Origin: Promethearchaeota archaeon
GTDB lineage: Archaea; Asgardarchaeota; Lokiarchaeia; Sigyniarchaeales; SOKP01
Direction: 5' to 3'
DNA: 64,000 nt
Assembly (NCBI GenBank): GCA_019058295.1
Contig: JAHPZI010000014.1
Span: 32,001 to 96,000 of the forward strand
Shown one piece after another: positions 60,727 through 62,647 of this stretch. The position numbers were made by a program, and so were the translations under genes. A model generated the notes under the pieces. The model was given only the letters and a program-made list of their open reading frames with translations. It did not search any database and had not been told where the DNA came from. How positions within the stretch are numbered: the stretch's first letter is position 1; every line of letters starts with the position of its first letter.

Positions 60727-61947
60727 ATGAAGATAGATTATACCTCTTATAAAGATGTAGATTTGAAAGGAAAGAAAGTGTTGATGCGGGTTGATATCAA
60801 TTCTAACATAGATGTAGAAAAGATGCAAATTACCAAATCACCTCGAATTGAAGTATTAGTACCATTTTTGAAGGATATTTACAATGAGAGTGCTGTAATT
60901 ATTATGGCTCACCAATCAAGACCAGGTAACGATGATTTCACCGATTTAGATATTCATGCTAGAGAAATCGAAAGACAACTTGGTAAACCCGTAAAATTTG
61001 TCAAGGATATTTATGGTGAAGTTGCTGTCAATGCAATAAAGGCTCTTAAACCGGGAGAAGTCTTAGTACTGAATAATATACGTAAATATGAAGCTGAAAT
61101 GAAGGGATATAAAGATTTTTCCGAAGCAGAGAATACTGATATGATAAAGACGTTGTTTCCCCTAGTGGATTATGTGATAGTGGATGCTTTTGGAGCAGCA
61201 CATCGAGCACATGCGTCTATCGTTGGTTGGCCTAAGATGTTAGCTGGCCCAATAACTGATAAGGAATTACACAATTTGAAAAAAATTGTGGAAGCACCTG
61301 ATAAACCTATGGCTATGCTTATCGGAGGGGCAAAAGCAATCGATAAATTTAAAGCTATGAAATACAATTTTGACAATGACAAATTAGATTATGCGTTATG
61401 CTCAGGATTAACAGCCATCTTAATTTTTGAAGCATTAGGTAAAGACATGGGAGAGATTAACCTTAAAATTACGGCGAAAGATCTGGAAGCAAATAAGGAT
61501 ATGATTATTGAAACTTATAATAAATACAAAGACAAGATAATCTTACCTGAAGATTTAATTATTGATGACAATGGGAAGAGAAAAGCGATTACAATTGATG
61601 AAGCTGGAACTGCAAATACAACCACAGGGGACATAGGACAAAAAACTGTAGAAGTTTTTAAAGAGATAATGGTAAAATGTAAAACTATAGTAGCAAATGG
61701 ACCTCCTGGCATATTTGAGAAAGAAGTGTTTAGAGCTGCTACCATGGATATGGTTGATGCTATGGTGGAAGCGACTAAAAAAGGAGCTTTAACCATAATA
61801 GGCGGAGGGGAAATGGGAGCTGCAGCTGCAATGTCTGGTAAAGATGATCAAGTCTCATTCATATCTACAGCAGGTGGAGCCATGCTTGAAATTCTCTCTG
61901 GAAATGACTTGCCCATGATTCGAGCATTAAGAGAAAAAAAATTATAG
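60727..61947 (+). CDS. pgk: Phosphoglycerate kinase
   Basis: RVDIN, HQSRPG, DAFGAAHR, GGAK, NGPPGIFE, ISTAGGA. Confidence 0.96.
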   Translation: MKIDYTSYKDVDLKGKKVLMRVDINSNIDVEKMQITKSPRIEVLVPFLKDIYNESAVIIMAHQSRPGNDDFTDLDIHAREIERQLGKPVKFVKDIYGEVAVNAIKALKPGEVLVLNNIRKYEAEMKGYKDFSEAENTDMIKTLFPLVDYVIVDAFGAAHRAHASIVGWPKMLAGPITDKELHNLKKIVEAPDKPMAMLIGGAKAIDKFKAMKYNFDNDKLDYALCSGLTAILIFEALGKDMGEINLKITAKDLEANKDMIIETYNKYKDKIILPEDLIIDDNGKRKAITIDEAGTANTTTGDIGQKTVEVFKEIMVKCKTIVANGPPGIFEKEVFRAATMDMVDAMVEATKKGALTIIGGGEMGAAAAMSGKDDQVSFISTAGGAMLEILSGNDLPMIRALREKKL

Positions 61948-62005
61948 AAGAATAATTTATTTTTTATTTTTTATTTTTATTTCACCGATACCTTCGCAAA
62001 GGTCA

Positions 62006-62042
62006 GTCCTCTTACGACTCCATTTTTTCTCGTAAGAATCAT
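62006..62042 (-). promoter_or_regulatory. SECIS-like element (eukaryote/Loki-type) in the 3' UTR of the UGA-containing ORF
   Basis: Minus strand reads AUGA-U-UCUUACGA-GAAAAAAUGGAG-UCGUAAGA-G-GA-C: tandem G.A/A.G core, perfect 8-bp helix and unpaired AAA at the 5' side of the loop. Confidence 0.62.
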
Positions 62043-62083
62043 TCAATTCGGGACTATTTTTAGTTTTTCTTTTGAAATACTTG

Positions 62084-62311
62084 CTATTGGATTTGTATTA
62101 ATTTAATGTCGTATATTTTATTGAGTTTATAAATTGAGAAGCCTTGCTTAAAGTTCACACATCCTCAACCTCCTCCTCCAGAATCACTAGCGTCTGCGCT
62201 ATTTTCACCATCACCTTCATAATACTGACTATTTAAATAAATAACAATTATCGTTATTGAAAAAGTCGTTAGAAGTGCAACTAAGGCAATTATTATAATA
62301 GTCTTTTTCAT
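62084..62311 (-). CDS. Candidate small membrane-anchored selenoprotein (75 aa, UGA at codon 49; 48 aa if UGA is a stop)
   Basis: Manual translation MKKTIIIIALVALLTTFSITIIVIYLNSQYYEGDGENSADASDSGGGG-UGA-GCVNFKQGFSIYKLNKIYDIKLIQIQ-UAG, followed by the SECIS-like hairpin. Not in the ORF track. Confidence 0.55.
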
Positions 62312-62508
62312 GTTTTTTTTTTTAGTAAGTTCCGATTTGGAAATTATAAAAACACCAATCCTTTTTTTTATTTTAATATAAATTGGGAATTTTTACTATA
62401 TAAAATGTGATAATTTTCTTAGAAATAAAATTAAATAAAATTAATATTTAGAGATTAATTTACAAATAGTAAAAGTTATATTTCAAAGGCAACAAGGGCG
62501 TGTTTTTG

Positions 62509-62611
62509 GGGCGCGTGTTAAGTTTTCAGATAGAAGCTTACGTGAAGTCTAGCCCGGTATGACGTCCGCTTGACGTGCGGAAGGTCGCGAGTTCGAGTCT
62601 CGCCGCGCCCA
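62509..62611 (+). tRNA. tRNA-Val(GAC) with 29-nt intron (62518-62546) between positions 9 and 10
   Basis: Acceptor GGGCGCG/CGCGCCC-A, D arm GTCT..TGAC, anticodon arm TCCGC-TTGACGT-GCGGA (GAC at 62572-62574), T arm GCGAG-TTCGAGT-CTCGC. The insertion is bounded by a BHB motif. Confidence 0.92.
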
Positions 62612-62647
62612 TTTTAATAATTTTTTATAATCAGCTAAAAGTTAAAA

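Follow-up and report, generated by a model that had tools for sequence, protein, structure and literature searches.

The window is a stretch of 64,000 nucleotides, and it lies on contig C14 of a 3.2 Mb assembly with 30.7% G+C that is 79% complete. The features described here for this locus all lie on the + strand. A phosphoglycerate kinase (PGK) gene at 60727–61947 (Pfam PGK, 6.9e-95) serves as the synteny anchor, and downstream of it a G+C-rich island consists of GGGCGCGTG, 29 AT-rich bases and then tRNA-like sequence. This island is the locus of a tRNA-Val(GAC) gene in two exons. Exon 1 (62509–62517) is GGGCGCGTG itself and supplies tRNA nucleotides 1–9, comprising the 5′ acceptor strand, U8 and G9; its sequence is identical to that of an intronless ortholog. 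It is followed by a 29-nt bulge–helix–bulge (BHB) intron at position 9/10 (62518–62546), which is placed by sequence, ARAGORN, a BHB scan and shuffling. The intron is composed of a hairpin (62519–62526 with 62533–62540), the loop of this hairpin (62527–62532) and the 3′ strand of the central helix (62541–62544). Exon 2 (62547–62611) supplies nucleotides 10–73, with the anticodon GAC at 62572–62574 and the discriminator A73 at 62611, as defined by the ARAGORN cloverleaf and the Rfam alignment. The gene does not encode CCA, and it is followed by a T-rich trailer (TTTT..TTTTTT, 62612–62626) that, judged from its sequence, is a likely transcription stop. Upstream, an AT-rich block at 62437–62475 (AAATTWATAWTTAGAGA... 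TTTWMAAATAG) is a candidate BRE/TATA promoter. The block is conserved across the genus and is kept in orthologs with and without the intron, and the sequence 3′ of it diverges. The gap between PGK and the tRNA gene (61948–62436 in the window) is an AT-rich region of approximately 560 nt with no long ORF in the genus; it measures approximately 145 nt in other genera.

ARAGORN makes no tRNA call in the raw window. After excision of 62518–62546, it returns a 74-nt tRNA-Val(gac) with all stems paired. The product shows U8, A14, the D-loop GG (G18G19), U33, a TTCGA T loop and A73, and its feature score is 7/5/5/3 stem pairs with 8/8 conserved features. The Rfam tRNA model matches the interrupted gene only in part (model positions 4–67, 41.4 bits), and it matches the intronless ortholog L004 over its full length with 62.6 bits. 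The assignment as tRNA-Val(GAC) made by the sequence-only reading is therefore borne out by the cloverleaf obtained on removal of the 29 nt, as is its warning that tRNA finders may miss the gene, since ARAGORN finds nothing and Infernal with Rfam finds a partial match.

The nucleotides flanking the insertion can be paired into a complete splicing motif. The outer helix is formed by 62509–62511 with 62548–62550 (G·U, G–C and G·U; 3 bp), and the central helix by 62512–62515 with 62541–62544 (CGCG/CGUG; 4/4 paired). Two bulges of 3 nt each, 62516–62518 (UG|U) and 62545–62547 (AA|G), separate the central helix from its neighbours, and the inner helix is the intron hairpin of 62519–62526 with 62533–62540, with 8 bp including a terminal U·G. 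The full BHB with cuts after the second bulge base, proposed earlier from the sequence, thus stands; the hairpin, given there as 7 bp, has 8 bp once the terminal U·G is counted. The motif satisfies the strict hBHBh′ criterion, with a weak h of 3 bp (two G·U pairs and one G–C) and an h′ of 8 bp. Cutting each strand behind its second bulge base (62517/62518 and 62546/62547) gives a normal mature tRNA. In the G007 ortholog (L004/L033), GGGCGCGTG is joined straight to GTCTAG with the same GTG|GTC junction. The comparison with G007 puts the insertion of 29 nt precisely between nucleotides 9 and 10, a placement that is independent of the motif and agrees with the position first suggested; no alternative placement of the 29-nt insertion gives the sequence of the intronless ortholog. 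We also shuffled the intron at fixed boundaries in 200,000 trials. A 4/4 central helix together with an inner helix of at least 3 bp arises in 5.8e-4 of the trials, and together with one of at least 7 bp in 1e-5. Since DNA contigs from the source run and from a second sample bridge the intron with zero differences, the intron is not an assembly artefact.

The pairing is just as good in a second BHB register, which cuts after 62518 and 62545: the central helix is GCGU/ACGU (4 bp), the outer helix has 4 bp and the inner helix has 7 bp. This register would remove 27 nt and leave a 76-nt product with two extra bases between nucleotides 9 and 10, so that no normal tRNA would result. Excision of 29 nt, by contrast, yields exactly the junction found in the ortholog. 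In G002, moreover, the shifted register loses one central-helix pair (U opposite U). Splicing in the shifted register is thus most improbable, despite its pairing.

Of 15 related loci in Promethearchaeota MAGs, 11 have PGK followed by tRNA-Val(GAC), and this conserved gene pair identifies the tRNA-Val genes compared here as orthologs. Among 10 species representatives of the genus, the 29-nt intron at 9/10 is present in the genome studied here (G000), G002 and G006, and absent from G007, G004 and G009; four gave no match. The intron is identical in two JGI metagenome contigs, whose leader and T loop differ at a few positions. The survey of relatives proposed at the outset thus recovers the 9/10 intron in G002, G006 and both JGI contigs besides our genome. 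The introns of our genome and G002 are 62% identical (38% changed), and the exons differ in the T loop only. The central helix is 100% paired in both, with a G·U changed to G–C; the hairpin shows one compensatory change from A–U to U–A, and its inner part re-pairs in a new register. With four sequences, this covariation is not significant alone.

The closest relative by PGK is G007 (AMARA_1S type; 95% identity). In the PGK tree, which is based on a single gene, our genome and the G007 type are sister to an ABR15-type MAG (L034), and this trio is sister to a pair of the G002/G006 type. The simplest history suggested by these sequences would be one intron gain at the base of the clade of our genome, G007, L034, G002 and G006, with a loss in the G007 lineage. 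Other genera of the family carry different insertions in tRNA-Val(GAC), namely one or two in the D loop, in the T arm and after the anticodon arm (L009, L012–L015, L022, L023, L026, L030, L037, L042 and L043). Since these orthologs carry differently placed insertions, tRNA-Val(GAC) has been interrupted many times at different sites. This variety matches the repeated gains that a preprint census describes for Asgard tRNAs (10.64898/2026.10.13.758758). The same-genus genome G001 (92% complete, 10 contigs) has no BLAST match to exon 2 of tRNA-Val(GAC), and its gene may be broken by further introns.

Could the locus be a decaying pseudogene that keeps its 29 nt, with GUY codons read by another tRNA? 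The one RNA contig examined has no coverage of the tRNA, hence no spliced RNA is seen; the assembly is 79% complete only, and an array of 27 tRNA genes elsewhere in the genome carries Val(TAC). Against this stand the exons, which equal those of the intronless ortholog except in the T loop, the boundaries, which fall exactly at the BHB cut sites, and the persistence of the interrupted form in three species and several samples. The sequence-only reading had named a lack of spliced reads together with another intact tRNA-Val(GAC) gene as the observation that would point to a pseudogene. No second Val(GAC) gene is found in this 79%-complete assembly, where exon 2 has a single match and ARAGORN adds only Val(cac) and Val(tac), and GUU and GUC make up 55% of the valine codons in 1264 long ORFs. 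We regard decay as very improbable on these grounds, and assign a probability of about 0.88 to the reading that 62509–62611 is a single functional tRNA-Val(GAC) gene with a 29-nt endonuclease-type BHB intron at 9/10.

The genome encodes two PF01974 proteins (EndA paralogs) of 201 aa each, on contigs C1 and C26. The C1 protein keeps Tyr/His/Lys and a Crenarchaeal-type L1 loop (the '..kPR..' region; a broad-specificity loop), and its best match among solved structures, with an alignment that spans its length, is chain B of the Aeropyrum pernix splicing endonuclease (3P1Z_B; 186 residues, 3.9e-36). The C26 protein has Ser at the position of the catalytic His. The pair fits an (αβ)2-type splicing endonuclease, with a predicted tetramer assembly, and this type of EndA has been reported for Asgard archaea (PMC5829648). 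A search of our 79%-complete assembly gives no match to RtcB; three relatives in the genus, G002, G006 and G007, encode the ligase. In G007, RtcB is one intact 497-aa frame. In G002 (C3:15844–17180) and G006 (C13:33313–34649), the reading frame lies in two open pieces (profile positions 1–47 and 47–426) approximately 26 nt apart, and the interruption could represent a BHB micro-intron of the ligase mRNA. Nineteen of the sequencing runs containing the locus are DNA runs and one is a polyA metatranscriptome (a share of 0.05), whose contig covers 62656–62797, in the downstream ORF outside the tRNA gene.

From the motif and the enzymes present, we infer that splicing at 9/10 takes place. In the precursor, pairing of acceptor nucleotides 4–7 with the final portion of the intron would give the 4-bp central helix and pairing of nucleotides 1–3 with nucleotides 11–13 the outer helix, and the intron would fold into its 8-bp hairpin. 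The putative (αβ)2 endonuclease would cut each 3-nt bulge behind its second base, and the acceptor and D stems would form only once an RtcB-type ligase had joined G9 to G10.

This geometry sets the splicing motif against the tRNA fold. The BHB uses tRNA nucleotides 1–7 and 11–13; therefore the acceptor and D stems are absent in the substrate. When 62509–62611 is folded alone, the predicted structure has the acceptor stem and the intron hairpin in place of the BHB. Forcing the BHB in leaderless folds carries a penalty, relative to the acceptor fold, of 11.6 kcal/mol in our genome and of 11.6–13.6 kcal/mol across four versions of the gene. The mutual exclusion of BHB and mature acceptor stem that had been anticipated from the sequence is thus confirmed, with nucleotides 1–7 taken up by the motif.

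The leader holds a feature that bears on this conflict. At 62496–62502 (position −13), a copy of the 5′ acceptor strand, GGGCGTG, is followed by a T5-G spacer (62503–62508) that extends to the 5′ end of the tRNA. The copy pairs with the 3′ acceptor strand (62604–62610) at 7/7 positions, with one U·G. When the leader is included, the minimum free-energy fold pairs the copy to the 3′ acceptor strand, and the BHB and acceptor folds become iso-energetic in our genome (−39.4 and −39.2 kcal/mol) and lie within 0–2 kcal/mol of each other in all four versions. In these models, the copy offsets the approximately 12 kcal/mol cost of placing the acceptor strand in the BHB. The copy GGGCGTG is identical in all four intron-bearing versions. 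Between our genome and G002/G006 it shows 0/7 changes, where the leader flanks differ by 23% and the introns by 38%; the spacer is T6-A in G002 and G006. Where the 9/10 intron is absent (at least 18 orthologs), the best leader match covers 3–6 of 7 positions, and in G007 the copy and the intron are lost jointly.

The same arrangement recurs in two other tRNA genes of our genome. The tRNA-Tyr(GTA) gene on contig C4 has a 28-nt intron at 8/9, in addition to introns at 37/38 and in the T arm, and its leader holds a full 7/7 heptamer copy, CCCCTCT, at −15. The tRNA-Cys(GCA) gene (C28:121772) has a 30-nt intron at 10/11, and its leader copy (type A) is a tandem GCCAGC of 6 nt that shares G1 of the tRNA. 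ARAGORN accepts both tRNAs after excision. The tRNA-Cys gene (C28:121772–121883) has a 13-nt variable region after intron removal, and its 3′ CCA is encoded, unlike that of tRNA-Val. A census pipeline based on GC islands, strict BHB motifs and ARAGORN recovered Val and few other interrupted genes, and relaxed anchor searches for interrupted tRNAs were swamped by G·U noise. The interrupted Cys, Tyr, Ala, Asp and Arg(CCT) genes were located by weak Rfam hits and targeted patterns, and the census is partial in this sense.

Within the genome, a leader copy is found in 3/3 tRNA genes with an intron at 8/9, 9/10 or 10/11, and a 7/7 leader copy in 0/22 of the other native tRNA genes with a defined 5′ end; the exact probability of this split is 1/2300. 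Relatives show the same association. For Tyr, the intron and the copy occur together only in G000 and G007, and ten intronless orthologs are without an exact copy. Exact copies alone were counted here, because, once G·U pairs are allowed, T-runs in two intronless orthologs score trivially as 7/7 'copies'. For Cys, an insertion at approximately 10/11 and a leader copy co-occur in six genomes, one of which belongs to another genus, and eleven intronless orthologs, including three of the same genus, are without the copy. The Cys genes fall into three types with different introns and different spacers (tandem, 5 nt and 3 nt), and the copies lie at −6, −10 and −12. Among the relatives compared for Val, Tyr and Cys, there are no exceptions in either direction to the co-occurrence of intron and copy.

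The tRNA-Cys genes at L088 (G003) and L103 (G001) carry a 33-nt insertion at approximately 10/11 with the copy 5 nt upstream, and by hand check no canonical BHB fits this insertion at 8/9, 9/10 or 10/11; its motif may be relaxed, or its boundaries may lie elsewhere. In our genome, both tRNA-Pro genes have leaders (C2:59206–59215 and C21:216745–216760) that end in a pyrimidine run, CCTCCTC and CCTCTCT, respectively; this run does not copy the 5′ acceptor strand GGGAGGG but is complementary to it. At C22:30303–33335 (L105:8300–11340), 27 tRNA genes for 19 amino acids, all intronless and with lower G+C, form a compact array. It holds second copies of Tyr(GTA) and Cys(GCA); Val(TAC) is present in it and Val(GAC) is absent. 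Its neighbours are chromosomal genes of an ordinary kind, for 3-dehydroquinate synthase II, Snf7/ESCRT-III, a DNA methylase and a WD40 protein. The array may be an acquired cassette, with the native tRNA genes being mostly interrupted.

We consider the odds slightly in favour of a helper role of the leader copy (62496–62502) in removal of the intron. During this removal, the copy would be paired to the 3′ acceptor strand; it would then give way to the true 5′ strand, which pairs without a U·G, and RNase P would trim the leader. Several observations tell against such a role. A TATA-like TTATATTT at 62476–62483 would start transcription 3′ of the copy; G002 and G006 do not conserve this element. 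The run of five to six T between the copy and the tRNA counts against read-through, since a T-run is a possible archaeal terminator. The BHB (62509–62550) is transcribed well before the 3′ acceptor strand, and could therefore form and be cut co-transcriptionally with no helper. Finally, a common mutational origin, rather than function, could explain why intron and copy arise together.

In a rival reading, the intron is real and spliced from a BHB formed co-transcriptionally, and the copy is a functionless by-product of the origin of the intron or of tandem duplication. In its favour, even the recent Tyr gain confined to G000 and G007 involved both intron and copy, and the type A Cys copy is a plain tandem hexamer; the BHB of tRNA-Val lies 54 nt upstream of the 3′ strand. 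The extent of the copies speaks otherwise. All five types (Val, Tyr, and Cys A, B and C) match acceptor nucleotides 1–7, with Cys A using six leader nucleotides and its own G1, which argues for selection on pairing with the 3′ strand over arbitrary duplication. There is no consistent extension into nucleotides 8–9 or the intron, and random duplications would not be so bounded; similarity beyond nucleotides 1–7 is weak and inconsistent (TGTT in Val if a CG deletion is assumed, 5/8 in AT-rich sequence in Tyr and none in Cys). The unchanged copy amid flanks and introns that have diverged, its joint loss with the intron in G007 and, in the models, its offsetting of the energetic cost of the BHB also weigh against a functionless copy, and we hold that reading to be possible while leaning against it. 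A different proposal makes the copy an alternative exon 1: with cuts after 62504 and at 62546, GGGCGUGUU would be joined to G10 to give a second Val isodecoder. The same outer helix can form, the central helix would be CGUG/CGUG with two G·U pairs, and the copy pairs 7/7 with the 3′ acceptor strand. The inner helix, however, would have 1 bp only, and the motif is therefore absent from the output of the BHB scan. The product would carry U6·G67 and U9, unlike every intronless ortholog, and the tandem copy of Cys type A leaves no room for such a motif. An alternative exon is accordingly very unlikely.

Returning to the helper role, we put at even odds the broader proposition that the 8/9–10/11 introns of Promethearchaeia tRNAs form a distinct class with a cis-acting, leader-encoded stand-in for the 5′ acceptor strand, in which splicing would precede RNase P and be followed by strand exchange.

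The 9/10 intron is a real non-canonical BHB intron, and its position is rare and not isolated, given the introns at 8/9 and 10/11 in the same genome. Marck and Grosjean reportedly described, in 2003, non-canonical BHB introns of Thermoproteales tRNA genes. Such introns are now a well-known kind (PMC4090602, PMC3218864, PMC8450103); among them is a 3/4 intron in Thermoproteales (Sugahara et al. 2008, as cited in PMC4090602), and introns near the 5′ end are the reason why tRNAscan-SE 2 lengthens its candidates by 60 nt (PMC8450103). The novelty first claimed for a 9/10 intron therefore holds in part: a 9/10 tRNA intron is not named in the literature examined, where position strings could not be queried directly, but introns near the 5′ end are recognized and our genome itself adds positions 8/9 and 10/11. 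In the same literature, we found no description of a leader copy of the acceptor strand accompanying a tRNA intron.

The closest parallel is with the Thermoproteales introns. Both are short protein-spliced introns outside 37/38 with two 3-nt bulges 4 bp apart, both go with an (αβ)2 endonuclease of broad specificity (predicted here), and introns near the 5′ end are known in Thermoproteales. These organisms, however, are Crenarchaeota rather than Asgard archaea, and the intron described here has a strict hBHBh′ motif, not a relaxed one, and a leader copy. The positions listed for the Thermoproteales type (3/4, 20/21, 22/23, 25/26, 29/30, 30/31, 45/46, 53/54, 56/57, 59/60 'etc.') do not include 9/10. 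Within the Asgard archaea, tRNA genes are described as intron-rich in Atabeyarchaeia and Freyarchaeia (PMC11291895), and the preprint census mentions, without positions in its main text, a few insertions in 'acceptor stem and junctions' (10.64898/2026.10.13.758758). As described in these two sources, the tRNAs of the superphylum share with ours many non-canonical introns at BHB motifs, introns that annotators miss (mostly in the D arm), and repeated recent gains and losses. Our genome belongs to a different class (Promethearchaeia, of Lokiarchaeia type), outside the three focal families of the preprint, and neither a 9/10 intron nor a leader copy is mentioned in the main text of either paper. 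A further parallel is offered by split and permuted tRNAs (Nanoarchaeum equitans, Caldivirga, Thermofilum; PMC4090602, PMC3218864), in which sequence outside the tRNA pairs with it and enables a BHB. In those cases, the extra sequence lies inside the BHB and joins two transcripts or permuted ends, whereas the leader copy lies outside the BHB and, in our model, would occupy the 3′ acceptor strand. The canonical archaeal intron at 37/38 has the same helix, 4-bp helix and 3-nt bulges cut after the second base on both strands; it leaves the acceptor, D and T arms folded, whereas the 9/10 intron needs nucleotides 1–7 and 11–13. We rate the coupling of the intron to a leader copy as a new aspect of an otherwise known kind of intron.

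In summary, the tRNA-Val(GAC) that reads more than half of the valine codons is encoded by a gene that standard finders miss or truncate, and Asgard tRNA sets judged 'incomplete' may hold genes interrupted near the 5′ end. A site at which the splicing motif excludes the acceptor and D stems of the tRNA can hold a BHB intron, which raises the question of how the precursor is steered towards the fold that can be cut. The association with a leader copy, seen in three tRNA genes with several independent gains and losses, offers a testable answer, and the helper model predicts the order of processing, with splicing before 5′ trimming. The route by which Asgard tRNA introns arrived is left open in the 2026 census preprint (10.64898/2026.10.13.758758). 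If the helper model is true, the leader copy would decide where 8/9–10/11 introns persist, which bears on the gain of introns in archaeal tRNA genes; since no prokaryotes are more closely related to eukaryotes than Asgard archaea, the rules by which their introns persist would bear on intron gain generally.
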